A stretch of 64,000 bases of DNA from positions 9,858,001-9,922,000 of the forward strand of contig NW_026889803.1 in NCBI RefSeq assembly GCF_033153115.1. The letters run 5' to 3'. Position 1 is the first letter of the stretch. Every line of letters begins with the position of its first letter. The position numbers were made by a program, and so were the translations under genes. The notes under the pieces are model-generated. The model ran no database searches. It saw only the letters and a program-made list of their open reading frames with translations, and was not told where the DNA came from. The DNA is from Saccostrea echinata. Taxonomy: Eukaryota. Positions 1-60,639 of this stretch are shown here, one piece after another.

Positions 1-398
1 TCGTCTTTGAAAGATGATGAATTTAGAACTTTGAGCGTGTAATGATTAATAAAAATCAAACAAATGATATGAAGTTTAAATCTTGAAAATTAAATAGAAA
101 TGAAAATCAAATTTACAAAATATCTATCTTTAAATTCTTTTGAAACATTAACAATAAATATCTAACTCGAAAATCATAATTCTTCCGTTGTGTCTGTTTG
201 TTATTTTTAAAATCAATTACTACTGAACTAAAATCGTGTTGGACTGAATAGTGAAGAAAAAATAATAATAAAGAAATAATGTGAATCTCTAAAGATTGGT
301 CTAATGTTTTCAAAAAAGTGCGGTATTTATTATAAATTGCATCGAGATCGGCATTACCAAAATAGCTTCTAAAGCGTGTAAATATGAGAAGATTCAAG

Positions 399-716
399 AT
401 GGGGGTGATAAGGGCGATATTCATTTTCTGCTTGTTCAAGACCGCTATGCCTAGTGCGATTGATACTTTCCAATTTTTTGAATTTTGTGACACTAGTGTG
501 TGTAGTTGGATGGGGGAAGGAAAGTACGGGGGATGTCTGCAGACGGATATCCACCAGCTGACATTCAACTATTTTGATTCAAATGGTATGCTAGATTTGA
601 GATGTAGCCATGTGGATGTGATTTATGTGGACAACACACCGTTGAGATGTAAAGATGTAGACCTATTCTTCTTAACTCAGAGACCGCTCACTGTTTATTT
701 GAATGGTGATATGTGT
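399..716 (+). CDS. Exon 1 of a spliced type-I membrane glycoprotein: signal peptide plus 6-Cys ectodomain
   Basis: TATAAA at 331, ATG in good context (AAGATGG) at 399, hydrophobic leader MGVIRAIFIFCLFKTAMPSA, six Cys in the mature part, and a phase-0 donor TGT|GTAAGT at 716/717. Confidence 0.75.
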
Positions 717-1287
717 GTAAGTATTTTATTTTAACCTCATCAAATGAGTATTTAATTACAAAAATAAATGTCTATGTATTAAGAGCTAAGAAATATGATT
801 GATTTGATCATATTTTATTGTGTATGTCAAGTTCTTACAAATTACTAGTACCTTTTCCTGAGAGGTAATAAGCACTGATGTAAATTGTGATGTAAAATGA
901 AATACCTTGTTTGTTTGTTGTTATATCCTTGTCCTACTCCAGAGAGTTATTGACTGTGAATAAATCGCATGCTAAGAACATACATACTAAATTAAAGATA
1001 GCTTGAAAAATGTACTACTAATAATTTAACATACAATATAGGATATTGTTTATTTATATTCATTTGTGTAAACAATACAGTGTATTGATTGCAATGCATT
1101 TAAATTGAAATCAAATATTAAAATCAGATCTGTAATTTTAAAGATATAGCTATAAACACTTTTCACATGAATTCAGTGAAGTGATTTAACTTTGTATACT
1201 TATGTTATATTTGATTTTTAAAACCAATGTAAAACATATATTGACTTGTGATAAAGCTACACTAATTCTGAATAGCAATTTTTGCAG

Positions 1288-1416
1288 CATGTCTCCTCCT
1301 CTAGGAGCACCCGTCCTACCGCCAGTATCAGAAGTACCAAACATCCCACCACCCATACTGCAACCAGTGGTACCACGCGAGCTACCAGTAGCAGCATTTT
1401 AAATGAATTCAGCGAG
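1288..1416 (+). CDS. Mucin-like stalk exon, copy 1 (HVSSSRSTRPTASIRSTKHPTTHTATSGTTRATSSSILNEFSE)
   Basis: TTTTTGCAG acceptor, GAG|GTGATT donor, 129 nt, phase 0-0, and 21 of 43 residues Ser/Thr. Confidence 0.7.
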
Positions 1417-1518
1417 GTGATTTAACATTGTATACTTATATTTGATTTTTAAAACCAATGTAAAACATGTATTGACTTGTGATAAAGCTACACTAATTCT
1501 GAATAGCAATTTTTGCAG

Positions 1519-1647
1519 CATGTCTCCTCGTCTAGGAGCGCCCGTCCTACCGCCAGTATCAGAAGTACCAAACATCCCACCACCCATACTGCAACCAGTG
1601 GTACCACGCGAGCTACCAGTAGCAGCATTTTAAATGAATTCAGCGAG
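1519..1647 (+). CDS. Mucin-like stalk exon, copy 2
   Basis: Same splice sites, 231 bp downstream of copy 1, open in the Ser/Thr frame. Confidence 0.7.
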
Positions 1648-1749
1648 GTGATTTAACATTGTATACTTATATTTGATTTTTAAAACCAATGTAAAACATA
1701 TATTGACTTGTGATAAAGCTACACTAATTCTGAATAGCAATTTTTGCAG

Positions 1750-1878
1750 CATGTCTCCTCGTCTAGGAGCACCCGTCCGACCGCCAGTATCAGAAGTACC
1801 AAACATCCCACCACCCATACTGCAACCAGTGGTACAACGCGAGCTACCAGTAGCAGCATTTTAAATGAAATCAGTGAG
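1750..1878 (+). CDS. Mucin-like stalk exon, copy 3
   Basis: Same splice sites; most substitutions are synonymous in the Ser/Thr frame. Confidence 0.7.
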
Positions 1879-2117
1879 GTGATTTAACATTGTATACTTA
1901 TATTTGATTTTTAAAACCAATATAAAACATATATTGACTTGATAACAAACAAAACTGTTTGAATATGGTATGCTAACATCCCTCCCTTCAAAAAGTAATA
2001 AATAAATAATAAATTTCAAGATTCTAGAGTAGGTAATAAGTGACACACACAATTCAATCAGTTAGTTAACAGTAGACTGAAAAATATCCCTTTGTAAGAA
2101 GATGTATCACTTTGTAG

Positions 2118-2196
2118 ATTGTGGGATTTGACAATGGTGCAAATGAGGGAGACATACATAATGAGGAGATGGGCACCTTCACGACTATTGTGTTAA
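2118..2196 (+). CDS. Juxtamembrane exon (IVGFDNGANEGDIHNEEMGTFTTIVL), start of the TM helix
   Basis: TTTGTAG acceptor, A|GTAAGT donor, 79 nt, phase 0 to 1. Confidence 0.7.
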
Positions 2197-2611
2197 GTAA
2201 GTATTATTCATGACAAGAAAAACATATCAAATGCTTGTTGTATAAAAATGAAAATAATGTATTATTATTTCAGTAGTTTCATCTTGGTAAGAGAACATAA
2301 CTTCACTGGCATGTCGTGGTGTCTTGTGGTAGCAACTTATTATGCTTATGCTTAGCTATGTAGTAGCTATTGGTCTCCTTCTGTTGAAAACAAGTCTTGT
2401 TTGCACTCCATTGGTATTCAATTAATATGTGAAGATTAATCTTAAAAACTTTTTTCCTCAATGCTCTTCAAATATATTACTCACCATCTGCTAATGTGTG
2501 TTGTGTCAAGGTTGCACTACTATGAAAGAGATATTGAAACAGTGAAAAAATGCTCTTGAGGATATTGATAATGGATACCTATGATGATATATTAAAATCT
2601 TAATTTTGTAG

Positions 2612-2865
2612 GTTTTCTTGGACTACTTATATATGTTGGAAATCAAATTATTGACATAAAGAAGAAGTTGATGGAAATCATAACAATTTTGAAAAAATTG
2701 TATGCAATTGTTAAAGGTTTTTGCAAAATGATTTTGAAAGTTTTTAAAGGCTACAAAAATCCAACAATTCAGCACATTCAGAAAGATAATGGTGCACATA
2801 CAAGTAGATATCCACAAAGAGCTAGAAAACAGACTGTTTTCTATGGTGACCCAGTTAAATTTTGA
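2612..2865 (+). CDS. Alternative terminal exon A (SFLGLLIYVGNQ...FYGDPVKF*)
   Basis: TTTTGTAG acceptor, phase 1 compatible with 2196; completes a hydrophobic helix followed by a basic tail. Confidence 0.55.
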
Positions 2866-3035
2866 AAATATGAAACATGCCATTCATAAGAATACATTGC
2901 AACTATATACAGTATCAAGTTTGCAGCTTTAAAATAATTGACCTCTTTGAATGATATATTTTCAAAATTTGTTTGTTTATCAATTAAAAAAATCTTTGTA
3001 GGCTGTAACCATAAGTGTAAAACATTTTATTTCAG

Positions 3036-3232
3036 CTGCTTCATTAATATCATCCTGCCTGGCAATCATATATTTTGTATGTAAAAGCATTGCTTGGCTG
3101 CGAGCTCGTCGTAGAAAAAGGCCATTTTCAGATATAAAAGCATACATTGATGAACAGTTTGAAACTCTCGAAGCCTACAGATTTCGAAATCGCCTTGCAG
3201 GGTTTGGAGAAGAAAATGATACTCTAGTTTAA
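3036..3232 (+). CDS. Alternative terminal exon B (TASLISSCLAIIYFVCKSIAWLRARRRKR...EENDTLV*)
   Basis: TTTTATTTCAG acceptor, phase 1; TM segment, stop-transfer RARRRKR, and a C-terminal x-T-x-V motif. AATAAA signals lie downstream at ~4162 and ~4245. Confidence 0.65.
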
Positions 3233-3384
3233 AATTCCTTTAAAAGTTCTTTTCAATTTGATTATACAGGTATATACAAATATATTTTAAAGATTCAACA
3301 TTACTATATCATCAAAAACATAGTAGTACATTATTATTTTTATTTCATACCAAATGTGTTTACTTTGGAATATAAATGGTAAGA

Positions 3385-3705
3385 TATGCTTACCTTTTAA
3401 TCTGTGTGAAGCTGTTAATTGTTTGCTTATGCTTTTCTTGTGCATTATATATTACCTTTTAAATCATGTTAAGCTGTTTGCTTTTTATGCATCATACATC
3501 ATGCTTATTACTCACCTTTTAGCCCATGTGAAGCTGTTTGCTTATGCTTTTATGCATTATATATCATGCTTATTACTCACCTTTTAGCCCATGTGAAGCT
3601 GTTTGGTTATGCTTTTATGCATTATATATCATGCTTATTACCTACCTCCAAGGCCAAGTGAAGCTGTTTGCTCATGCTTTTATTATACATTATATATCAT
3701 GCCTA
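3385..3705. repeat. 60-65 bp tandem repeat, 5 copies
   Basis: An AAGCTGTT core and TATGCATTATATATCATGCTTATTAC-like segments recur at 60-65 bp spacing. Confidence 0.9.
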
Positions 3706-4468
3706 CAACCTTGTATTGAAATAATCTAGCTTGTCACAGATAAAGAGTAGTATGCTCCCCTTTTACCTTCCTTAATCAAAGTAAGGTTTTCTTTGTTTTT
3801 GTTTTTATATTTTTGATTCATATGATTCAGCTAATACTAATGAATATGTACATATTTGATTTTAAAGTGATTCCGTTCTTTTGTTCAAAGTTAGTCTTGC
3901 TTCATAAAATGTTTGCTTTTAAACATTTAATTCAGTGATAATCATTGGATGTACATTATTGATTTCATAATCTTTGTTCTATGTTGTTGCTCTATATTGT
4001 GATTCATTACTACTTTGTTTACATCTTTACATAGAAATGTGCCAAAGATCTATTGAATTATACTTTTGAATATTTTGTATATACATGTACTGTGATTTGA
4101 TGATTTTTAAATATATATATATTTTTTTGTTGACATGGCATGTTAACAAGATCTGGTTTTTAATAAATGTTTAAATGATATACTGTATTCTTTATCCTTC
4201 AGCATGATTGAAATGATGTCCCTGTTTAAATCTCTTTTACGTTGAATAAACGATGTCTTAAAAGGTATTGACTGAAATAGCATTGTGTTGAGCAAAAGGG
4301 TATTGACATTGTTTCACTCAAAATAAAGGTCATGAATAGTTTTTGATCATCTGATAAGGATTATCAGTGTGTGGTATGAATATAAAAGCTGTTTGACTAA
4401 CAAAGTTACTTGTTAACCTGTTTAATGGTATTGAAATTCTTAGACATGTGTATGTCTAATAAGGATAG

Positions 4469-4499
<31 letters not shown>

Positions 4500-4929
4500 C
4501 AAAACAAAAAAAAAAACAAAACAAAACAAAACAAACAAACTTTGCTAAGAGTTATCTATCTTTGCGTGTACTTCATAAGCCTTTGAACTGAATCTCCTAT
4601 TTCAGAGAGAATATAAACATTTCTATTTACCCCTCATAAATCTTGTAACAAAGAATGTGTTTATTGCATATTTATATTTTCATTGCATTTGTCATTTGTG
4701 GATGCATTTAAATCATACAGTTCAAAGTCTTCTAGAAGTTCTTTGGATTTTGGCTCATTTACACAGTGATATAAGTATTAAGACATTAAGCCTTCAATTG
4801 ATTATAAAGTGTAAGTATGTGAGCCTTCTAACTTATTTTACATCTTTGGTATAAACAAAAATAGAAATGGGTGGAGTTTAAGACTAAGCCTTCAGTTGAT
4901 TGTATGTTTTCATATAGTCACTGCTTGGG

Positions 4930-5420
4930 GTTGGCATGTGAGCCTTTGAACTTAATCTACATATTTGGTAGACATTATATAGTACAGTAGGCGAGGCTAG
5001 CCTCTGAGCCTTTTACTTTAATTTACACACTTGGTAAACTTTATATAGTACAGTGGGTGGGTTAGCCTCTGAGCCTTTTAATGTAATTTACATACTTGGT
5101 AAACATTCTCTGACTAGCCTCTGAGCCTTTTAATTTAATTTACATACTTGGTAAACATTTTATAGTACAGTGGGTGGGGATTAGCCTCTGAGCCTTTTAA
5201 TGTAATTTACATACTTGGTAAACATTTTATAGTACAGTGGGTGGGGATTAGCCTCTGAGCCTTTTGGTTTAATTTACATATCTGGTAGACATTATATAGT
5301 ACAGTGGGTGGAGTACATACTTGGTAAACATTATATAGTACAGTGGGTGGGGATTAGCCTCTGAGCCTTTTGGTTTAATATACATATCTGGTAGACATTA
5401 TATAGTACAGTGGGTGGAGT
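4930..5420. repeat. Subterminal ~66-68 bp direct repeats (probable TIR-internal repeats)
   Basis: AGTACAGTGGGTGG..TTAGCCTCTGAGCCTTT..TTTACATACTTGGTAAACATT recurs about 7 times, some copies partial. Confidence 0.9.
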
Positions 5421-5578
5421 TGATGTGTGCTAGTATCCCCACCCTACTACTACTTCATACGTGTATTAGTTAGGTCAGCTGCCCCTTACATTACGTTCTA
5501 AATATGTTTAATAATTCAATATAGCATTGAACCAGACAGCTGATTGTTATTCGGAATTAAACAATCTTTCCTTAACAG

Positions 5579-5681
5579 ATTTTTGCCTTCATTGTTGCAC
5601 TTCACACTTGTCTGTCGTCAGTATAAACTTGACGGTTTTCTGATTGAGGTACCAGTTGAATTCCACCAAAAGGACATACAG
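5579..5681 (+). CDS. Penultimate exon of an uncharacterised host gene (FLPSLLHFTLVCRQYKLDGFLIEVPVEFHQKDIQ)
   Basis: TTAACAG acceptor and CAG|GTATGA donor, phase 2 to 0, in frame with the next exon. Confidence 0.75.
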
Positions 5682-6147: not shown

Positions 6148-6573
6148 GTTTTCGCCAAGACGTTTAGAAGAATACTAAAAGTAATATCAGACAACGACCC
6201 AAAGGAAGTGAGATGTATGAACAAATCCTATGTTGCAAAACGAGGATGGGTTTTTGAGTTCAATAATGTGACGTTTTTCATAACAACATTTGGACCGTTT
6301 TATCCAAAAACAAACAGCAGATATGCGTTCGGTTGTGAAAACTGCTTTATTTTACTTCAACCGGAGTTGAGTTTTGCGCTTCATGATTTATCGCCAAGCA
6401 GTTCAGAGACAAGTTACGAAAACCCTACAACAGAAAGGGACAGAATTAGGTGTGCATACAGCAAGGCGGGGAGACCGTATATAATACCACGTGATATTAC
6501 TCAGCCAATGGCATGGGACATGATAAAGCCCATCGCAGATGATGATGCAATCATTCAGTGGTGGACACAATAA
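6148..6573 (+). CDS. Last exon of a YqcI/YcgG-like protein (5' exons outside the window)
   Basis: TGTCCAG acceptor and 142 codons to TAA. The motifs W.FEF...FFITTFGPFY...SRY...LLQP..SF and R..IR recall the YqcI/YcgG C-terminal half. Confidence 0.7.
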   Translation, partial: VFAKTFRRILKVISDNDPKEVRCMNKSYVAKRGWVFEFNNVTFFITTFGPFYPKTNSRYAFGCENCFILLQPELSFALHDLSPSSSETSYENPTTERDRIRCAYSKAGRPYIIPRDITQPMAWDMIKPIADDDAIIQWWTQ

Positions 6574-36195: not shown

Positions 36196-38068
36196 TATTT
36201 GTTGATTTAGTCAAATTCACCACTTCAATAATAACTAGAACTGTCCAAAAGGGACAAATACCCCCGCTGGGTTTTTCAGAGAAGTGACAAATCACTAATA
36301 TTTTATGCATCTAAGAGGTGTTCACACTTTACTTAAATTGCTCATTACATATTTTTAATGAAGGAAACTAAGGTGCAACCTAATAAAACATCAATACTAA
36401 TTATTACATTTTTTATTACATTGAAAAAATAAATTACAACTATCTATCATCATGAGACATGACACTCTGCAAATTAATTGTTGAAAAAAAAAAATCATAT
36501 TTAATTATACAAAATCAAATTAATCTTGATAACTTTACATCCAAGTCATTTTAAAAATAAAAGGCTGGTCATCCAGTAAATTCATGTATGCATTTTGACA
36601 GACTATAAATTGAGAGAGATCTTTAATTCTTCTGCCAAATTCCCAGGAGATACATATATAGATGCTTGATCAGAGATGCCCTAACAGTTTCCCACATTGA
36701 ACTCCTTTAATTAATCTTTAACTGGATGCATATCCACTCATTAATCCCAAGGGACAAATGGATTTAAGATAACTGCTTTGTAATGCACTGTGTACAATAG
36801 AAAAGGTATATCTATGTCATTCTATTGAAAACAAAGATTTTTTTCCTTTTAATCTGTTACAAAACTTTATATAATGGAAAAAAAAGAACTGTGTAATCTT
36901 GATGCAACATATTTAATAGGGTTACTGCATGACTCTTGGATTTGTAGGGATTATCTGTCAAAAAAACTTTTTTTAATACTTGGTGATTTTATTTTTAGTT
37001 TTAATGAGTAGTTTTAAGCTGTAGTTCACATTTTTGTACAGATGTACCAACTGGCAGTTCTAGATTCTATGTCTCAGACCTATATAAATCCAACATGACT
37101 AAGTCAATAAAAACAAAACAAACAAAAAAACACCTGTAAAATGCAGAAAAATTAACCAATAATGATGAGAATAGCAGGTGCACACCTTCATATAATGAAT
37201 AAAAAGTTTACAAATTTTTCAGACAAATCTATGCAATAGTCTCTGAGAAAAGGTCCAGACAAAATCGCGTAATAAAAATGAAAAAAAAAAAAAACACCTG
37301 TAAAATGCAGAAAAATTATCCAATCATGATAAAAATACCAGGTGCACACCTTCATATGAATAAAAAGTGTACAAATTTTCAGACATATCCATGCAATAGT
37401 CTCCAAGAACAGCTCTGGACAAATCTCCTCTACAGACAAACAGACAGACTTACAGACATGGTGATTCCAATATACCCCCCCTAAACTTTGTTTGCAGGGG
37501 GGTATAATTATGAATCATAATTTTATGGACAATGGTCCTACCAATAAGATTTTTGTCATGTTTCTTATTTGATGAACATTCAATTTCAAGAATCGACTCA
37601 AAAAGAAATCCACAAAAATAAGTGTTCATAATGATAAAACCACAGTATGCCCTCAGTATATATGCTAGATGTCAAAGGTAAAGATGGACATTTTTCAAAT
37701 GTATTATTGCATCTTCACTCATAGCCCTGCCCAAACAGCAGAACTGTTGACACAGGATTCATGATGAATTTCATGAATGGTAGAAATGTTCATGATTATT
37801 CAAACCATGTATTTAGTTTGTTTGCTACAGAAAGAAGACCAAACAAATTTTACTTTTTACCAAAAATTTATGGCCCCTGGGGTAAGGATAATTAAATTGA
37901 CAAGTTGTGTTCTTTCCACACAGATGTTACAAAGCTGAAGTATATCATTACTGACACACAGGAATAGCTATACTTTATCTTGGTGACACAGGTGACCCAA
38001 AAATGAAGACAGCCCAAAAAAAAAGCTGCCCAAAAAAATCACTTAAGCATTTGTAATGCTTAAAAAAT

Positions 38069-41000
38069 TCAGTAATCCCAATCTTTAACTTCCATAATTC
38101 TCATAGTAATCAATGCTTTGAAAATTATTTTACGGTCTTCACTCTTTAAGAAATTGAGCTGTTTTGTGTAAAATAATATTGGTTCTTCATCCTTTGTTGA
38201 ATCAAATTTCACAGATCCAGGTTTGTTTCTTCTTTTTATTTTTTCAAAGCTTTCTGGTTTGATTTTCAGGAAAGTAAATAATACCTGCAAAAATAAATTT
38301 GACTATTAAATCTTTTAAACAAATAAGCCATCTTTCCAAGTCAAGGGTTTGTGATCCACTCCACTCCACATACACCCTTGACCAAATAGACTGACTTTGA
38401 CGGGGTTTACTATCGCACCATCTAGTGAAATTACACGTTTTGAACTCTATTGCCCTCTGCTATTGACCAATTAGAGTAAGCGATTTAAATAGAGAATGTG
38501 AGACAATATTGAAAGTTGTTAATAAATTCACTCCAAAGCCGAGACAATCCTTTAACTTGGTCATTTAATGTAAAGATATTTTCGTTGGGACAATAACTCG
38601 ACAGGTGTGTTTTTCTGTTAATAACGATTAAGTTTCTGGTTAGATAAAACAATGTTTTTGATTGGCTCATGCAAACTTTAATGAGGGAAATCAGAGAGCG
38701 CTTTCTAACCTGTTGGTCTATTTGATCAAGGGTTTATGTGGAGCGGAGTGGATCAGAAACCCTTGACTTGGGAAGATGGAAATAAGCATGCTTCATTTCT
38801 AATTTCGAAAAATTGTCTTTTTTTCTTCTTCATATAATTGAGATAGAATTTTCCATGTACATAAATGTCTCCCCTACAGATATGGTTGGGAGAAGGATTT
38901 TACACAGATGTCTGCTATGACCTTGACCTTTGCCCTATAAACTTGGTTCAAGATCACTGCACACTTATTACCCAAAAGCATTCTGTGGGTGAAGTATGAC
39001 CAAGATTGGGCCAAGGGAAGAGGAAATATGGTTTTTACAAAAGGATCAGCTATGACCTTGACCAAAGAGCTAGAAACTTGGTTGAAGGTCATTGCAAACC
39101 CTTTACCCAAAGGCACCAACTGGGTGAAATATGAGTCAGAATGGGCCTAGTGGTGAGAAAATATGGTTCAGTCAAGTGATATCAGATGGAAAGACATGCA
39201 AGATGAAAAGACTGATCCCTATAGGGTGCCCGCAGAGCGAGGCTCTAATTACAGTCTCCATTATCTTCAGAAGAAAATTTTTAACTTTATATTTATATAT
39301 ATTTCTTTATATGTGAAATATTCATGAAAAAGCAGAGTTCATGAATATTCATCAATGTAATTTTCATGCACAAATATTCATGATCCAAAAATGTCCAATA
39401 ATAATTAAGTTCATAACATTCCAAGCATTCAGAATAAATCATTCATCTTGCATTTACATGTATTGGTGTTCACTTTGACTCACGTTTGAGTGCTGTTTGC
39501 ACTCTGCATTTGCTCACCTTTCAGTGTTCAAAGACCATTCACTCACCGTTCGCTCACCATTTGTTCAGTGTTCTCTCACCTATCAAGTGGGAGAGTTTTC
39601 AGGGACTGTAATATTGACTCAGATTAAATGTTACTTACAGTTTTCACTTACATTTGTCTTTTGTATGACCATTCCAAGTAGACCTCGTTTTAAAACAGAA
39701 CTTTCCAAATACGCTAGCAGTTCTCCAACATGCTGGGCATATACATTTGATGACAGACCACCAATAGAGCTTGTACTGGAACTTGTCTCCTCATTTACAG
39801 TTTCCAATGTTGATGATGAAGAGCATGACTTTTTCTTAACTGGTGAAAAATCTGTTCCTTCTTCAGGATTTTTTCTTTTTACCTATTTAAAAGATGTTCT
39901 TCATATTCTATAATCTTAAATATAACAAAAAATTAGTTTTGATCATGCTTTAATATAGTCTTAACAAACACTTTAGTAAGATTGTATTTTTTATTCCAAA
40001 AATAGTAATTATTGTTCTTCTTCTGTTCTCTTAAATCATATTTTACATAATCAAATCTGATTACATTATTCTACTAATTTCATTAAACTACTATAAGTTA
40101 GCAAATCAGAACTATGAATTAGATCATGTGCTGGTAAAAAGTTAAGTATAGTCCTGACTGGACATAACATAACATGAGAGTGGACCCAGGGTTGTTTCTG
40201 TGTTTGATTTTGGTTAGCTCAGTATTTGCTCCTTGTACCCTTTGGGTCAACAGAAAGAGAATGCAACCTCCATCATTCAAATTAACTTTACACACACAAG
40301 TTTGAAGGGATTGATTGATTGTGTGTTGTTTTACGTCCCGTTCGAGAATTTTTCACTCACATAGAGACGTCACCATATACCAGTGAAGGGCTTCAAATTT
40401 ATACCTTTACTCGGCACTCAGGGCCATTGAGCAGTGAGGATTCTTTATCGTGCCAATGCCTAACGTGACACAGGGCCTCAGTTTTTAAGGTCTCATCCGA
40501 AGGACCCACAACTTTCACTACAAAGTGCTGAGCACTTGGCGAAGGAACAGTTACTACCTATTTTTTCATCAACTTAAGTCAGTCGCGGCCGTGATTCGAA
40601 CACATGACCTTCTGATCATAGAGCGAGCGCTCTACTGACTAAGCTACCATGAAGGGAAGCCAAAGTTAAAAGTTTTGATAATACTGGCCATTTGGTTTAA
40701 AGATATCTGACAAATTATAAACTGAAAGGGTGGATATGACCTCAAAGCACTTGCCCAACTTAATGCTCAACAGATGGAGAGAATACCCAAAATCAGGTAT
40801 TACCCATGAAATCACATATAATACACAATAGTGTGTATCGTTGAATCTGCGAAATCAGGTAACCTGTGCAACTTTCCTCAAAAGCAGAAAAATAAAGCAA
40901 ATAAGGTGCATTATGTCAGTAAGCATGGTATGTACCTCAATGTCTAAGGGGTTTAGAGGTCAAAAGTCAAAAACCACATGACTAACATGGTCGAAGTAAA

Positions 41001-44000: not shown

Positions 44001-46589
44001 CCACTTAACCATTGAATTTTTTTTTAATTTAAAAAACTTCACTAGTATTCACATTAGGCAAGTTCTCAGCCTGAGAATTTCATGACTTTTTCCTGTCATT
44101 GCTATGTTGGATGATGATTACTGCAGTAATGGACAGTCGGTTAGTACCAGTGGTTCTAGAAATGTACCAGGGTTCTTGTATATATACTTACATGACTTTA
44201 AATTCAAACAATTTAAGAAATTTTTCAAAGAGAATTTGATAATCAATTTCATATGGCAACTGGCTCTCTCTTTTTTCGGGCTGGTGTATTTGCTGCATGG
44301 TGTCAAACAGAAAATATCCAAACTCTTCACAGTTTTCACTGAACCTAAAATGCCAATAAAAAAAAATGTAACCACTTTTATATTTAAACTATTCAAGACT
44401 GAACTGATTTCTGCTTTTTCCTAGCCAAAGTGCTCAGGTGAGCAATGTGGCCCCTGGGCCTCTTGTTTTTTTGTTTTTTTTTTGTTTTTTTTTAAATAGT
44501 CTGCAGTGTTTTCAATAAGAGCTGGCAACCAGCAAAATTAACTGCCTGTACAAGAAATTTTGCTGGCTATGAGATTTTAGTCATTGGGATTTTGCCTATA
44601 AGATTTCAGTCATTGGGATTTTGCCGGGGTTAATGGTACATGAAATCCATAGATTTAATCGCAACTATCTACATGATCTAGAGTAACTTCCCTTGAGTGC
44701 ACTCTTTTTCTTGAAAGTTTAATTTGATCCAAATTTCACATACTAGGCTACAACTTGCGAGAGTAAAGTTTAAAGAATATTTCTTTTTTATTTAAGTAAG
44801 TAAATTCTTTATTTCCAATTCTGGGCCCATTCATGGCATATGAGAACAAATCAAACATAAATAAGAGAAGAAACAAATAAACAATAGAGAGGGCAAGAGA
44901 ACCAAAAGATAGATAACAAAGTAGCTAAGGTTTTGACAACGAACTCTGTATATTTACTGCTTCATTGACATAAGCTAAATATTTAAAGATTTTGATGATA
45001 TTGTATTATTTATAACTCCAAAAGTGAATGTTTAGTAAAATGTCTTTTTGGTGACAGAATCTAACAAAATCATCTAGAAATTGCTGTACAGCTGAACATT
45101 GCCAAATTAAATGATATATTGTTTCTTCCTCTGCTTTACAAAATGTACATAGAATCATGATAGATTAGAATATATAATGATTGATTCTATATTGAAGCCA
45201 TTGTAATTTACTGTTTTGGGTTGTTACAAAAGGTAGATACTAAATTGCTTTCCAGTGCATGTGTGTATCTGTCAAGTTGAAGAAATTTGACCATTTTCCC
45301 ATACCCACAGGTTTTATTACTGATTTATTTTGCACATCATGCATAGGCTTTGATCCTTTTTGGTCAACACAAAGACTTTGATATCGCATGGAATTTCTGG
45401 TTTATGAATGTATCCATTTTAAATTTACAAAAGTTATACCTTTTTAAATTTATCAGTATTGCTTGTTGTATGCCTGTATAAGTTAAATGGTTGATATGAA
45501 TATCATATAATTTTGTTGAATGTTGTCTAATGTTAAGAAGTTACTATTCTCATCTAAAAGATCATGTAAATATTTTTTTTCCTTTACATACCAGGACTAA
45601 TAGAATACTGTTTTTTTTTTTTTTTACTGATTTTTAATCTTTTTATCTTGTCTATACATTTCAAGATTTGATTTCCATAAAAGAACTAAAAATCAATTTA
45701 TTAATTTAAGACCTTTTACAACACCTAATGGTGGTTTGGTAAAGTAATAAATATGATTAAGGTGTGATATAAGAAGTGATTTAATAATGTAATTCTTTCA
45801 ATAGGAGTTAAGTTTCTTTTTTTCCATTGCTCAATGATGGTCTTAATTTTTGCCCATTTTTTTTTTTTTTCATAATTCAATTTAATCATCTTTGCTAGGC
45901 CATATGAATTAATTTATAATTTGTTGAGGATGTAAATTTGTGTGTGAGGGGACTCACAAAATCAATGAAAATTGAGCCTCCACACATTCTAATGTTACCA
46001 CAGTCAGGCACAGTGATTGATTCATGAAAACCAAATGAAATCATACAGTATGCAATTTTTAAGTAGGTCCTTTTGGATAAACTGTGTACAAGTCTTATTT
46101 AGTTGATGATGAATTGCCCTGCTATTCTAAAAGTGCTCAGTCTCCCATTTCAATAATATCAACTTACAATTTAAGCTCTTTGACTGTTGTCTTTGGAAAC
46201 CACTCCTGTACCCACTGCTTATAAGGTTTGGTCTCATCATATGGTATCTCCTCCAATGAATCGAAATCAACACACGGTAAACTGCATATTTTAACAATTT
46301 CATCAATTCTAGATAATTCAGCGTCTGTCAAATTACATAATGACCATTCTGTTCGTACCAGTTCAAATGGGCTTGTCATTACCCTTCTAATGCCAAATTT
46401 ATCTATCAAACCATTAGACCAAGAGCTCGGGTTACTTGGAAAGTCGTTTTTGTCTGAGCTTCCATGCGAACTGGGACAAGAAAAATCGCTATTTGTTGAA
46501 GAGTCATTCTTTGTCATTGTACTTGACAACGGAGGGGAGGGTGTCTCTTCTTTCTCCATTTTATCATTAGTTTTCTTTTCACTTTTCAT
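38069..46589 (-). CDS. PD-(D/E)xK restriction-endonuclease-fold protein, 379 aa (exons 46589-46168, 44344-44192, 41394-41277, 39882-39652, 38284-38069)
   Basis: Five exons with GTAAG donors and YAG acceptors, phases 2,2,0,0, giving a 1140-nt ORF with no internal stop. Motifs are EIDYQ, KADILV, VCE|VK and YAQHVGELLAY. The start codon is the first in-frame ATG and is less certain. Confidence 0.8.
38328..38779. mobile_element. MITE with ~60-bp TIRs in the last intron of the nuclease gene
   Basis: CCATCTTTCCAAGTCAAGGGTTT... / ...AAACCCTTGACTTGGGAAGATGG, with TSD AAATAAG. Confidence 0.85.
40311..40649 (-). mobile_element. tRNA-derived SINE
   Basis: Same core as the 14033 copy, reversed, with a (CAAT)n tail and TGAAGGGA on both flanks. 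Confidence 0.85.
41830..42698 (+). mobile_element. HINE with degenerate central repeats
   Basis: Repeats of GGCTTTGCTGTTCTTGAGAAG..GGGGTCATGATTTGAACAA and a 3' AAAAGCTCACTTGAAC..CAGGTGGGCTAAAA end. Confidence 0.75.
44790..45860 (-). mobile_element. Degenerate L1/Tx1-type LINE 3' fragment
   Basis: Minus-strand remnants WKKRNLTPIERITLLKSL, KLQWLQYRINH and CTFCKAEEETIYHLIWQC (zf-RVT-like), with stops and frameshifts. Confidence 0.75.
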
Positions 46590-46663
46590 CTTTTGTTTCT
46601 GTTCCCTCTCTGTGTCACGTTTAAAGTTTTCAGACCAAATTGTACCGTAGCAAATTCGTATTC

Positions 46664-46760
46664 CGTCGGGTAACGGGACGTTTCGCTCCTATTGACGTTT
46701 CTCGCCGAGACCATTCGTCCCCAAAGACCTTTTGCGCTAAGACGTTTCGCGCTACATTTA
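46664..46760. mobile_element. DNA-transposon terminus with GACGTTTCG-like subterminal repeats
   Basis: GGTAACGGGACGTTTCGC followed by ~16-bp repeats; it abuts the 5' end of the nuclease gene. Confidence 0.5.
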
Positions 46761-48806: not shown

Positions 48807-51769
48807 TATTTACATTTTACAAGTTCAAAAGCAACAATATTATGCTCAATATCTGAATTTCTTGCTGCCCTATATCGTTACATTTTTATTAACGTCTCTG
48901 TAGCCTCATTGTGACGTCACTTTACCGCGAGTTTCACCATGTATATTTCTACGCGTGAGTATACACAAAAATAATTTAATTTTGTTTGTATTCTAGCCTC
49001 TGATTGGTTAATATCCAAAAAGGAACACAAATTATATCTGTATAACCTGGTTTGGTATGGGGACACACCCCCCTGACAACCAGCTGAATCGTCTGTATCC
49101 ATGCAATCCTCTCATTTCCAGTCCTCGGGATTCATGGAAAATTCCAGATTTAATAAATGTAAACAGTAACTCGGATCTTACTACATGTAAACAAAAAACA
49201 TGGCTGCTAGGACTATGTATCAGTTTTTACCTCCCCTTGCTTCCCATCACTTCCGTTACTAGGGTTGTATTATTGAGCGGCAAATTTGAACTAATAAAAA
49301 GCAACGAAATTTTACACCAACAGTAGTTTAATGATTTTAGAATTAAATTATAAGGAATGACTCTAATTCTTGGCCAAATTATTCGAGTATAACCTGGTTT
49401 GGGTCAGTTTACGCTGTTTTATAATCCGCTTCGCATAGTAATGTATGCATATATATATATATATGATGCACTGTATATATACCTAATATCAATGAAATAT
49501 GTCAATATTGTTCTGGAGCAGGCCTGCGCTCTATAAATTTTATAGTAAAAATTGAACAAATGTTGTCCATTTTTTCCTCTTTCTGAAAAACAACACAAAA
49601 TCCGAATAGTTTGTGACGTCATAGGAACAAAAATTGCTAATAACCTACTTTGAAACTATAATATTTTTTGTTAATTTAAATTTTTATACAATATATACAA
49701 TTCAGCACATTTCAAGATATATTCAAAATATGACTTTTGTGGGGGCAAAAATATGCATATACCGCATATAGTTCTTTTATAAAACTGTCTTTTCTTGTTT
49801 ATTTTACAGTTACTGTACTATTAACATATACGTCTATTTTCATGATTTCGATAAAAGAAGAAAAGAAAAAAAATGTCAATATTAATAACGATGTGAATAA
49901 TCCATTTATGCTGATTCCGTTGCCCCCCCCCCCCCCCTTCCCAATGTTGTTCAGGACCTGAATATATGTTTCATTACTTTCTAATTTGTTTATGTCAAAT
50001 TTAAAAAGTACTTTTTTATCCGTAAAAACATCCAACTGCAGTCCTTGCTGATATACATGATACGTGTTATACATTCAAATTTAAATTTTCACCATGACCT
50101 CATGAACGTTTCTCTAGTTAGATTGACTTTAAAAATACTTTGTTAATTAAAGGTGGAGTCGGTAAATAAAACAGTTCTTCTTCTCTTTTGATATGACTGG
50201 TAGAAAATGCATGATGTTAAAATTTTCAATTATTTCTTTGACTGAAATGCTGTTTATGGCCACGGAGATTATTTTCTGGGGAACTAATTTTCGTACTACT
50301 TAACAGTTTTTCAAGATTTTCATTCTTAAAAAAATCGACAAAACGAACGAAAGAAAATTGCAGTAAATGAAACTGAAACTTTCATATTTTATAGGAACTA
50401 AAACTATTGACTTTTCTAATTTTACATGATTATAACAGAAAGTTCTTTTTCTGCATGCACAGCAGCGGCCGATCTATTTGTGGTTATGTTAGAATGTGCA
50501 CATGGGGAAATGAGATGTTTTTTTTTCATTGCTTCGTTGGAATAATTCCTCATTGATCCATACATGAAAGTTATGATTAAAAGTTTTTAAAATTTTGCTT
50601 AATACTAAGTCTAAATGGTTGATATTATGTTTCAACTTGTTTTTAATTTCTCATCACATATTTATTAATTTTATGATTTTACAAAAATGTGTTTCATGAA
50701 CTGCTCCCCAACACGGGCGTGCGTAAGATATAAAACAAAACGTATTGAGTTTCCGGATATGAATAAACAGGGCCTAAAATAATAAATAAATTAGAATAAG
50801 AACTGAATTTTGTTTTGAATACACTACAGTTGCAAGTGACACAATGCAGTCTTTTTCCTGCACTTCACATACATATCTATCACACACTAATCGGCATTAT
50901 CACGTGACAAAGATCAAGGATATCAGCACGTGAAATTTGTACGATCTTTTTGTTTGCATGCAGACATTCATAATCAATTATTTTAGAAATGTTGCCTTTG
51001 TCCTTGAATCAAACAGTTTGATGATAATACATTCCTATCTTTTATCTCAGTCTGATTTTCATAATAATGAATTTATTGCTTTGGATAAATATTGATCACT
51101 GAAAATTAAAGTGTAAAAATAATGCACAGTAAAGTAAAGCAAGTGTAAAAATGTTTCATGTATTTTTTTCTAAATGGATTTTTTTCTATGACTCTTTCTC
51201 GTGAAAATACTTCAAAATGATGAAAGTATTTTTGCGGCCGATTTGATGCTTTGCATCAATTTAACCTGTTTTATATTGTTGGGTTAATGTCTGTAAAAAA
51301 AAAAAGCCAAGAACTATACAGTTTTCAAAAATAATACGGCCTTATAGGTGGATGTATAGCTGTACTAGTATATCAGTTTACAGTTCAAGGTTGTTGTTAA
51401 GGACAGCAAAGCTTTTTGGGGAAAAAAAGCTATACTTGTATTATCATTTTGTTGAACCACTGACATATGAAAAAGATATAACACCTGCTAAAAAAAAAGG
51501 AAAAAGAAATGTTTCGCTGGGTAGAACACACGTTTCATAATCTGATGCGAACCCGTCTAATTACTGCAAAACAGTTTCTAAAACTGTTCAAACTGCTAAC
51601 TACGAAGTAGTCAATATAGGCATTTTTTTTTCAATTAAATCAGCATCAAAGGCCTTCCTGTTTAAAGCTGATATTACAAATTACAAATTAATCACTCTCT
51701 CTCTTTTTATTCTTGCTTGTCAGATATTTCAATTAATTGAAAAAATTTAGCGTATTAGTGATTTTTTTA

Positions 51770-52740
51770 AATTGGTAATTCCAACTTTAATCTTGGCTTT
51801 TCCGACTTTAATCTTGGCTTTTCCAGCTTTAAAGTTGGTAATTCCAACTTCTAAAATGGTAATTCCAATTTAATCTTGGCTTTTCCAACTTCTTCTAGCC
51901 CTTTTCCTTAGCTTTTTTTAAATTACCAATTTTATAAATGCAAAATTAATACACTGAAATAGACTGGTGAGCAATTAATCTGTGTCAATTATTTTTAACC
52001 TTGTCCTTCCCCATGACCTCACATATAACTTCCAACTTTTAATTAAAAACCCTTATTTTCTTTTGGTCCATCTTATATAATTATATAGAGAATAACTTCC
52101 TACAACTCCATACATGGCAGGATTTCAACCAAGCCTATTTAAGAGATCAGCCATATATTTTGTTTTGTATGAGAGAATAAGAGTAAACAAATGAGAGCAT
52201 TATAAGGTGTTTGCTATATAGGATGAATCAACACTATATATTACACGCTACAAATACAACAGAAATAAATGTATCAATTCTGTATATAAAAACAAAATGA
52301 AATAATTCCTTCTTTCATCATAATTTAATGATTACTTTCTTTCCATTGTAATTACATAATTATATAAAACGGCAACACGAGTCCAGCTACAAAGTATCTG
52401 AATATACATGTATAAAGCCATACAAAGATGGAAAGGACAAGATTAAAGTTGAAAAAACCAAAATTAAAGTTGGAATTTCCAACTTTAAAGTTAGAAAAGC
52501 CAAGGTTACATGTAAAGTTCTAAAAGTAAAGATTTAAGTTGGAATTACCAACATAAAGGGAAATTACCAACTTTAAAGTTGGAAATATCAAGATTAAAGT
52601 TGGAATTACCAACATAAAGTTGAAATTACCAACATAAAGTTCAAATTACCAACTTTAAAGTTGGAAAAGTAACTTTAAAGTTGGTAAAGCAACTTTAAAG
52701 TTGGAAAAGCCAAACTTATATAATTAAAGTTGGAATTTCT
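51770..52740. mobile_element. Foldback-like element whose inverted arms are tandem arrays
   Basis: Left arm (TTCCAACTTTAATCTTGG)n at 51770-51890 and right arm (AAGATTAAAGTTGGAA..ACCAA)n at 52440-52740. Confidence 0.7.
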
Positions 52741-58751: not shown

Positions 58752-60377
58752 TTATTCTGTATATTTGATGACCGTCACATTTCCACTCTTGTACTCCCCC
58801 ACCCACAGTCTTCCCAGTGAGTCCACACTCAGTGCTCCACAGAAATCCAGACTACGGAGAAACTGACCGTCCTGATCAATGATGTGGGTACAGGAATTCC
58901 CGATATCCTTTACTATTATACGACCAGCAGAGTCTGTAACAATACTGGTAGGATTAAACTGCTTCTTCATCGATTGTTGTCCTTTATATCGGAATCGGAG
59001 TTTTCCTACCTTGTTCACCACAACAACATCCTTGCCATTGCAATCAGAGGCACATATATCACCGTTGTTGTTCTCCGCCACAAAGAGCATCTTATCTCCT
59101 TCTTTATATAGTGGGTTACCTTGGTCGTCCTTCTCTATCTCCTGCTTTATTGTTTGACTTTCATAGCGGACAATTTTATAATGTTCACCATTAGATGTGC
59201 GCATACTAACCAGTAAGTCACCAGATTGTGTGCAACACAGTCCTCCTGCTTTCCATCCCTGTGGTGCTGTGATATGTGCTGTTGTATGGTGGACATCATA
59301 AATTACTTTATTTACTACATCAGTGTATAGCAGATGTCCTTCTTTTGAAATTGAAATGTCACCAGGATAATTTAGACAAGTGGAAGTAACGGTCTCCTGT
59401 ACAGAACCCTGTATGTTAAAACGAGTAATGGTTTTATTCCTCCCCGTTATCCACACCTCCTCTGTATTAGCACATGCCATCCTCATCAACGGTGTTATTC
59501 CAGTGTGGAAGGCTGAGATTTCCACGGCCTTGTCTAGGAGCTCATTGGATACATCTAATCTGTAGATCGGTTCTGTTTGGATCTTGGGTTCCTTTAGTTT
59601 TCCGAAAACGTGGTAAAGTTTGCCTTTATCTATGTCCTTGGACACGAACATTGGTAGTTCCAGTTCTATATGTAAAGGAAGCTTAAGATACTTCTGAACA
59701 TTGCTTTCATATTTTGTGATGTAACCAACATTCTTGGATTGAGAGATCTCTTTGTTTTGCAGAGAAATTTCATTAAGGCTTGCAAGAACATTTTTGATCT
59801 CCTTCTGGTATTCTTTTGATTTCTTGATGCCATTTCCTCTCATTTCTGCAATATCTCTCTTGTTCTTTGCAACAATTTCTTCAATAAATCGCTGCCATTT
59901 TTGTCCATGCTCTGTAACTGATTGTTCTAATTCGTCACATTTAGCATTTAAAGTCGCTAATTTGGATTCTATTTCTGTATCTGCTTTTTCAAATTTTGGA
60001 ATGATATCGTCTTTTAGATAAGCTGTGTCCTTCTCCACAAGCTTTTTCATGTCATCAACGATGTCCTTAATTTCAATAATTCTATGACCGTTATGGGCTC
60101 CGCTGAGACATTTAAAGCAAACTTCTACATCACAATTCTGACATTTAACAGTGCACTTTTCGCCACTATGGGCTTTGCAGTTTGGAAATGAAAGGTGGAA
60201 TTTTCTCTCTCGGTATTTGACAACCTCGTGATTAGAGGATGATGACGTCATATAGTGTTTTCCGACACATTCTTCGCATAAGTTGACCTGGCAGGGATTA
60301 CAGTGAAGGAGGGCGGGTCTCCTGTCACAGTAGTGACAAAGGATGACTTCCTGTGCTTTAGTTGTACCGGTGGCCAT
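58752..60377 (-). CDS. TRIM-like copy 3, intact: RING-less B-box1/B-box2/coiled-coil/NHL-like beta-propeller protein, 541 aa
   Basis: CHYC..HCNPC..LCEEC..H and CKAH..C..CQNC..VCFKC..HNGH B-boxes, a heptad region, and propeller repeats. One coding exon with an acceptor at ~60413; ATG at 60377 (the track starts at an upstream TTG). Confidence 0.95.
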   Translation of the reverse strand: MATGTTKAQEVILCHYCDRRPALLHCNPCQVNLCEECVGKHYMTSSSSNHEVVKYRERKFHLSFPNCKAHSGEKCTVKCQNCDVEVCFKCLSGAHNGHRIIEIKDIVDDMKKLVEKDTAYLKDDIIPKFEKADTEIESKLATLNAKCDELEQSVTEHGQKWQRFIEEIVAKNKRDIAEMRGNGIKKSKEYQKEIKNVLASLNEISLQNKEISQSKNVGYITKYESNVQKYLKLPLHIELELPMFVSKDIDKGKLYHVFGKLKEPKIQTEPIYRLDVSNELLDKAVEISAFHTGITPLMRMACANTEEVWITGRNKTITRFNIQGSVQETVTSTCLNYPGDISISKEGHLLYTDVVNKVIYDVHHTTAHITAPQGWKAGGLCCTQSGDLLVSMRTSNGEHYKIVRYESQTIKQEIEKDDQGNPLYKEGDKMLFVAENNNGDICASDCNGKDVVVVNKVGKLRFRYKGQQSMKKQFNPTSIVTDSAGRIIVKDIGNSCTHIIDQDGQFLRSLDFCGALSVDSLGRLWVGEYKSGNVTVIKYTE

Positions 60378-60639
60378 CTTTGGCAATGTTACAAAGTTCC
60401 TACCAATTCAATCTAAATACAGTTAAATTACTCAATAAATTCTCAGTTCAGGTCTTAATATGTGTAACTTTTGCTTAAAATTCCATTCAAAGGAGGGGAG
60501 TACAAGTTAATTTACAAAACCTTAATCTTTAACTGTTTAATGAAGAGGTTCACGTGTATAATTGCATTTTTCATGAACTGTGTATGTGTTTCACGTAATG
60601 TACTGTATTCAATTATCTTCTCTATTGAGAAGACATCTC

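Follow-up and report, generated by a model that had tools for sequence, protein, structure and literature searches.

The window analysed here is a 64,000-nucleotide stretch of the Saccostrea echinata genome (G000:C54:9858001-9922000). Its first 5.4 kb contain a spliced gene and an array of short tandem repeats that ends abruptly, and two exons of a host gene follow (Table 1). A preliminary description had read these 5.4 kb as the right arm of a Maverick/Polinton, with TCATAC as its target-site duplication (TSD). Elsewhere in the window we noted by eye three B-box/TRIM-like genes or remnants on the minus strand (15698-17237, 22122-23315 and 58752-60407), comprising one intact 551-aa ORF and two interrupted ones; genes of this kind are expanded in oysters. 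A 174-aa open stretch, also on the minus strand (46164-46688), resembles by eye a nuclear-receptor hinge exon. Tandem arrays with units of 128-164 bp and 20-21 bp occupy 19803-20983, 31846-39168 and 51766-52729, and such arrays are typical of oyster satellite-bearing mobile elements.

Table 1. Features at the left end of the window (positions are those of the window; TIR, terminal inverted repeat)
Feature	Position	Strand	Remarks
Right arm (accessory region and right TIR)	1-5454		Core genes all upstream of the window
Cargo exon 1	384-716	+	Hydrophobic N-terminus (predicted signal peptide) and ~86-aa domain with six Cys, predicted to fold as a short parallel-beta solenoid
Cargo exon 2, Ser/Thr-rich stalk unit	1288-1416	+	Unit 1 of the triplicated 231-bp intron-exon repeat
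Cargo exon 3, stalk unit	1519-1647	+	RNA contig, exon reading, RefSeq model
Cargo exon 4, stalk unit	1750-1878	+	RNA contig, exon reading, RefSeq model
Cargo exon 5, acidic linker and first half of hydrophobic segment	2118-2196	+	Phase 1 end; RNA contig
Last exon of RNA contig and RefSeq models	2274-3527	+	Stop after five codons; remainder read as 3' UTR
Candidate alternative last exon B	2612-2865	+	Completes hydrophobic segment, followed by a long amphipathic stretch and an Arg-rich end
Candidate alternative last exon C	3036-3232	+	Completes transmembrane segment; basic stop-transfer run, short tail
Right TIR, ~675 bp	4780-5454		Left TIR ~380 bp
~67-bp minisatellite array within TIR	4939-5420		Left TIR with fewer units
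Terminal (ACT)3	5446-5454		Mirror of left-end (AGT)3
6-bp TSD TCATAC	5455-5460		Copy also directly before left TIR
Host exon after element, acceptor of 19,335-bp intron	5579-5681	+	RNA contig, single-copy
Host last coding exon	6148-6573	+	YqcI/YcgG match weak (E 0.008, below cut-off)

Element ends and insertion site

The ~67-bp array lies where the preliminary description had placed it, and the spacing of 124 nt between the terminus and the start of the host exon was likewise as described. After the array come 34 bp, the last 11 of which are CTACTACTACT at 5444-5454, and then the TCATAC hexamer. A mirror TIR preceded by the same hexamer had been predicted upstream. Searching the genome with window positions 5000-5460 returned 17 matches, one of them inverted, at G000:C54:9844885, and TCATAC stands directly before it, as predicted for the TSD. 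The mirror end is therefore present, and the string foretold for it was correct except for one base. This left end begins (AGT)3 and shares 39 of its first 40 bases with the right end, giving an element of 18,570 bp (G000:C54:9844885-9863454). The chance of a 6-bp match at the local base composition is ~5e-4. Furthermore, perfect 6-bp duplications were found in six of six related elements with both ends located, the focal one included, a count that omits C6b, C33 and two further loci in which both ends were not found. The other five (C42, C16, C6a, C57 and C5) measure 18.4-20.7 kb and each has a different hexamer. Positions 1-5454 are multi-copy, with copies 93-97% identical on C6 and C33, in keeping with their reading as a right arm, and run X2 contains the same right end adjoining another flank. 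An exact 13-mer search with the right end gave 12 sites, below the control number, because left ends and sister families differ in sequence.

One could instead see the array and the ACT run as the edge of a host minisatellite, and the arm as host DNA. Oyster genomes are rich in minisatellites, and RefSeq annotates the arm gene as a host locus. This reading is refuted by the mirror end and its TSD, by the recurrence of these ends at six insertion sites, each with its own hexamer, by the second flank in run X2, and by the core viral gene profiles and capsid fold presented below, and we leave it next to no probability.

The TIRs are unequal, the difference between ~380 bp on the left and the longer right TIR being due to extra minisatellite units on the right. 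Identity of the inner TIRs is 87% between left and right (~13% different), which is exceeded by the comparison with copy C6b (left-left 96%, right-right 93-97%). The asymmetry was thus inherited and provides no age estimate, and TIR divergence as an age clock was ruled out. No empty-site allele was found among the loose ends listed for run X2, and the locus has no second copy in G000. In the left arm (L018:2069-3388), a perfect 660-bp tandem duplication spans the inner TIR and the start of a PC4-like ORF, and is either very recent or an assembly artefact. The right arm also contains a 65-bp tandem array (3454-3702) and an A-rich run (4472-4539). One claim of the preliminary description, an ORF ending at ~41, was not borne out: a TAA (40-42) and an AATAAA (48-53) are present, but this frame spans only 14 sense codons and is preceded by an in-frame stop immediately before the window begins. 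With divergent genes on either side and ~75% conservation in sister copies, the stretch is more likely a promoter region than a gene end.

The element is located inside a 19,335-bp host intron, 634 nt past the donor. We found that a contig of run X7 joins both window host exons at GT-AG with 0 mismatches, and that the loose 5' end of this contig corresponds to the two host exons on the left side of the element; host mRNA therefore joins exons across the insertion site. This holds for X7, a run listed as 'RNA?' in which 14 of 23 contigs are at least 99% alike, and whose animal may or may not carry the element here. In carriers, the element would be removed from the host mRNA. The arm is multi-copy whereas the adjoining host exon is single-copy, and the genes of the arm are thus element cargo rather than host genes, in agreement with the preliminary description.

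Core genes and the interrupted polymerase

The preliminary description had anticipated a protein-primed polymerase (pPolB), an rve integrase, a packaging ATPase, an adenain-like protease and a capsid protein upstream, and all five were found within 18.6 kb upstream. The core genes all lie on the + strand, in the order 148-aa ORF, 116-aa ORF, 379-aa rve integrase, 153-aa ORF, 133-aa ORF, 441-aa ORF, C5 protease, A32-like ATPase, 128-aa ORF, 162-aa ORF and polymerase, and all core ORFs other than pPolB are continuous. The integrase combines rve (PF00665, E 4e-10, above the Pfam cut-off) and chromo (PF00385, E 9e-8) domains, and the protease matches Peptidase_C5 above the cut-off (PF00770, E 2e-5). 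The ATPase, which has a Walker A motif in its sequence, matches Pox_A32 (PF04665, E 1.4e-4) with 21.9 bits, just under the cut-off of 22.8. The C-terminal part of the 148-aa ORF is PC4-like (Atlas 0.87, a lead). The 153-aa ORF occupies the position expected of a minor capsid gene, after the integrase, and is conserved in relatives; it had no match in Pfam or PHROG.

A model of the 441-aa ORF built with 73 homologues is a double jelly roll (pLDDT 85.6) whose top matches are the capsids of PBCV-1, iridovirus, Sputnik and mavirus. Against the PBCV-1 capsid, Foldseek gave E 7e-14, and the superposition had a Z of 27.5 and an rmsd of 2.9 Å over 358 aligned residues. On the evidence of this predicted structure, the 441-aa ORF is the double-jelly-roll major capsid protein. 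Its named homologues are bivalve proteins (Ostrea edulis, 86%) and IMG/VR holds one relative (40%); a search of PDB sequences with the capsid profile gave no match by sequence.

The polymerase has 2788 homologues, several of which, at 45-50% identity, contain PF03175 or are named DNA polymerase, and motifs A, B and C are present in its sequence. The pieces of the focal polymerase gave no PF03175 match of their own against Pfam, the matches listed against PDB sequences were zinc fingers only, and two scans of IMG/VR yielded no polymerase relative. Cys and His motifs were noted by eye near residues 260 and 351, and the N-terminus may include an OTU-like region. The last exon contains a frameshift that is absent from the four copies compared and that may be real or an assembly error. 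Because of this frameshift, the focal copy is probably no longer autonomous, unless the assembly is at fault.

Just upstream of the window lies a further spliced element gene, on the minus strand (L019:7028-7518). An X7 contig joins its two exons with 0 mismatches, and the gene is conserved in four sister copies. By eye it may be PC4-like, which would make it the second such gene, head-to-head with the glycoprotein gene described below.

The genome contains at least 95 Maverick capsid matches (95 scored of 474 candidates). The nearest copy, C6b, is 97% identical and fragmented. C42 is 82% identical to the focal copy and 99.8% to C16, and this mutual identity points to recent activity of the C42/C16 sister family. 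Contigs C5, C6, C33 and C36 hold most of the 95 capsid matches and of the 25 matches to the arm gene, and some of the elements on them adjoin or sit inside one another. C42 (L025:7900-9010), as well as C16 and C6a, has extra right-arm genes without a focal counterpart, namely a second stretch that weakly resembles a protease and an ORF of ~130 aa rich in Cys and His.

The polymerase ORF breaks at the motif B glycine and again just after motif C. The gaps measure 91 and 89 nt, are both in phase 2, and have GT-AG ends and pyrimidine tracts. When we surveyed the best 30 of the 73 polymerase matches in the genome, intron 1 (81-93 nt) was present in nine loci and intron 2 (83-93 nt) in five, at conserved positions; two further loci have non-GT-AG inserts at the second site, and the remainder are continuous. 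In the tree, the nine intron-1 copies form one group (94/91), within which eight have support of 98/98. Identity to the focal copy is 50-64% in the intron interiors and 75-88% in the intervening exon, and this exon differs from that of C16 by 25 synonymous and 6 non-synonymous codon changes. Both introns were also found in two of nine metagenome loci, those two being identical at both junctions. Among the best 120 polymerase homologues, 22 are interrupted in this region: nine at the same glycine (all in the focal clade), nine one codon later and four nearby. For one of these other 13 breaks the DNA was seen; this locus, L107, is interrupted by a GT-AG intron of 376 nt that lies 4 nt downstream of the focal one, so that at least two intron positions at motif B exist in different lineages. 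A clean nested gain, with intron 2 arising after intron 1, was not supported: a two-intron copy falls outside the one-intron group (101-column tree, 88/82), and loss is thus as possible as later gain. L107 (JBEVXV010000478.1), a contig whose Polinton polymerase contains an intron, is assigned to a bacterial 'Sedimenticola sp.' MAG. Several of the polymerase and capsid homologues are MAG-labelled Maverick proteins, likely animal DNA in symbiont bins.

Alternatively, this could be an ordinary Maverick in which the polymerase gaps are post-integration insertions, a product of decay and not functional introns. According to the available part of one report (PMC8097293), the majority of Maverick loci have decayed, and their insertions are taken for introns by gene predictors. 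Frameshifts are indeed present in the focal polymerase and several sister copies, and no spliced polymerase joint was found in runs X1, X2, X3, X7, X18, X23 and X24, with two raw RNA runs giving only 10 and 41 reads over 10 kb. A joint near intron 2 in X3 has non-canonical ends, and one contig of the X3 RNA library reads through both introns unspliced; an X7 contig matches polymerase exon 2 without mismatch up to the final base of the exon, where the match ends and 14 letters stay unplaced. The gap positions, however, are not random among copies as decay would have it, but identical, with GT-AG ends and pyrimidine tracts, across different insertion sites and metagenome contigs. In addition, the intron interiors diverge much faster than the exon between them, and the nine homologues that stop at the same glycine come from other datasets. 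We therefore regard decay as very improbable. The pattern of positions and divergence suggests that the pPolB gaps are spliceosomal introns, kept while the lineage still copied itself.

A spliced cargo gene for a predicted membrane glycoprotein

The cargo gene of the arm is transcribed and spliced. X7 contigs, with 3-4 mismatches each, contain the GT-AG joints 716>1288, 1416>1519, 1878>2118 and 2196>2274; joint 1647>1750 is not among the X7 joints listed. Two RefSeq proteins of Saccostrea echinata (XP_061162482.1 and XP_061162483.1, LOC133171708) match this exon structure, and their final five or four residues are encoded by the exon at 2274. The three stalk exons belong to a 231-bp tandem repeat (1167-1941), which is a triplicated intron-exon unit. 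A further X7 contig covers 3612-4084, and transcription may reach further 3' in the arm.

The last exons of the gene appear to be alternative. Candidate exons B and C are both open and have acceptors in the right phase. The RNA and RefSeq models of the focal copy use a third acceptor, at 2274, and stop after five codons, and junctions to neither B nor C were seen in RNA of the focal copy. In the C5 subfamily, B and C are kept at ~30% identity and in unchanged order, and in the C42 subfamily they occur in swapped order (B at E 0.05; C by eye). The head domain is modelled with confidence (pLDDT 93). It had no significant structural match in Foldseek searches of PDB (E > 1) or BFVD, the weak ones being LRR and beta-solenoid proteins (Z at most 4.3), and none in a word-indexed protein search, Pfam, PHROGs or PDB sequences (E >= 2); these searches do not imply a new fold. 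As an LRR, the domain scored at most 0.84 in Atlas, and none of ten members had a Pfam LRR match. Together these features predict a type I membrane glycoprotein with a Cys-rich head and a mucin-like stalk, in which alternative last exons would choose the anchor and tail.

We found that the cargo sits at the same place in the closest copies and in both TIR-bounded subfamilies checked (C54, C6b, C33; C42, C16, C6a; C5), at 39-90% identity, and it has thus travelled with the element for long. A profile of ten copies retrieved 44 clusters; the ten looked up comprise eight named bivalve proteins and two unnamed ENA records. Relatives with both tail types are annotated as ordinary genes in oysters and mussels. 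The tail of Crassostrea virginica isoform X1 is 33% identical to B (E 8e-14), and isoform X3 of the same cluster has a C-type tail by position and character, with no BLAST alignment to C. A Pinctada tail was likened to B on the same grounds of position and character, again with no BLAST alignment. In Mytilus, single genes have isoforms X1 and X2 that start with a common N-terminus and then continue into a C-type or an Arg-rich B-type tail. Homologues of the cargo gene include LOC111109991 in C. virginica, LOC134695483 and its kin in Mytilus, and FSP39_014899 in Pinctada.

We give an even chance to a putative role of the glycoprotein in attachment, or in a surface modification that serves the element. 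Somewhat less probable is that the gene belongs to a host family, for example of immune or adhesion surface proteins, and was captured as a passenger with no role in the element cycle. Its introns, its transcription and its annotation as a host gene in several bivalves are in line with this, as are the intron-bearing cargo genes known from nematode Mavericks in the available part of one study (bioRxiv 2022.07.12.499685). Moreover, placement inside an element was confirmed for seven of the 25 cargo matches, all in this genome. Against a host family speaks the shared placement across diverged subfamilies, and in Mytilus nearly identical relatives recur on as many as 18 and 21 contigs, as expected for a mobile element. 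Capture from the host would be compatible with the Maverick call itself.

Interpretation and comparison with known systems

Taken together, these results make it very likely that positions 1-5454 are the right arm of a full-length Maverick/Polinton that is flanked by a 6-bp TSD in an intron of an oyster gene, and whose lineage likely uses the host spliceosome for its polymerase and some accessory genes. Apart from the minor capsid protein, for which the 153-aa ORF is a candidate by position, each defining Maverick/Polinton feature tested was found. The length of the element, like that of its relatives, falls within the 13-25 kb range of the group. The one usual trait that the element lacks is intronless core genes, given the two GT-AG gaps in pPolB. 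By itself, a Maverick terminus is nothing unusual for an oyster.

The rve integrase of Mavericks makes a 6-bp staggered insertion, their (AGT)n ends serve protein-primed replication by pPolB, and the capsid, protease and ATPase of the family could package DNA. By this scheme, the integrase would have inserted a linear, TIR-ended DNA with a 6-bp stagger, the (AGT)3 ends serving as the origin for protein-primed replication. From its intronic position, the element would be spliced out of host mRNA. The host would transcribe and splice the lineage, as was observed for two accessory genes and is suggested for the polymerase. The glycoprotein would project from a membrane, its head carried at the tip of a glycosylated stalk, and splicing would select its anchor and tail.

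A broader picture, which we offer as speculation and think improbable as a whole, is that of a bivalve-wide Maverick lineage with adenovirus-like, splicing-based expression. Motif B introns would have been gained more than once, and transcripts retaining the intron would encode the terminal-protein and exonuclease parts but not the catalytic motif C. A surface glycoprotein not described before, switched by its last exons between short-tailed, Arg-rich-tailed and anchor-less or GPI-like forms, would act as the envelope or attachment protein of particles or remodel the surface of the carrier cell, and would now be annotated as a host gene in oysters and mussels.

The findings have consequences for surveys and annotation. 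This lineage would be classed as degraded in surveys that require ORFs without introns or that rely on prokaryote-style gene callers, since 22 of the best 120 polymerase homologues break at or next to motif B. The bivalve membrane proteins that RefSeq calls 'uncharacterised' or 'WSC4-like' belong to a family that in this genome is transcribed, spliced Maverick cargo, and transcriptome work in oysters and mussels reads such cargo genes as host genes. A transcribed surface-protein cargo also offers a handle on whether animal Mavericks form particles and move between hosts. What the locus contributes is a complete element bounded by TSDs, a series of introns within one genome and RNA contigs for the cargo. 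The literature searched, as far as its texts were available, describes neither spliceosomal introns in the polymerase of an animal Maverick nor such a glycoprotein.

Compared with the Mavericks of animals, as described in the available part of PMC8097293, the element is alike in its size class (12-25 kb), TIRs, (AGT)n/(ACT)n ends, 6-bp TSD and an accessory region beside the core. It also shares the int-mcp-pw-Mcp-pro and atp-pm-pz-ppolb gene order, with the names of the small ORFs assigned by position only, and has both modules on one strand, as in the Mavericks of Xenopus tropicalis described there. Intact vertebrate Mavericks are reported in the same text to have intronless core genes (Barreat & Katzourakis 2021, PMC8097293), whereas here pPolB has two GT-AG gaps and the inner TIRs are ~13% apart, with an asymmetry common to a sister copy.

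Adintoviruses, in the accessible portions of two accounts (Starrett 2021, PMC8502044; Buck 2024, bioRxiv 2024.03.25.586562), are alike in having an rve integrase with a C-terminal chromodomain, a hexon-type capsid, an adenain, an ATPase and a PolB, ours with a possible OTU-like region. The membrane-active accessory genes described in those portions are PLA2X, GasderminX and a cupiennin-like gene; they include no spliced single-pass glycoprotein on a mucin stalk. Nematode Mavericks (Widen et al., bioRxiv 2022.07.12.499685) resemble the oyster element in their intron-containing accessory genes and in a predicted single-pass membrane protein with a signal peptide. According to the available text, their core genes are intronless, their fusogen is an 866-aa gB-like protein, and no Maverick transcription was detected. 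The oyster protein, in contrast, is ~250-330 aa long, is not gB-like, and is spliced and transcribed.

Spliceosomal introns inside DNA mobile elements have precedents in the polinton-like introner elements of dinoflagellates (PMC11957031) and the TLEWI Tc1 elements of bivalves (bioRxiv 656579), as far as the available parts of these reports describe them. Introners are repeated intron-making transposons, mostly gained after integration, and TLEWI Tc1 elements are without TIRs and look domesticated. The likely introns of the oyster element, unlike either, are short and divergent, and have been passed on to TIR-bounded copies that occupy separate insertion sites.
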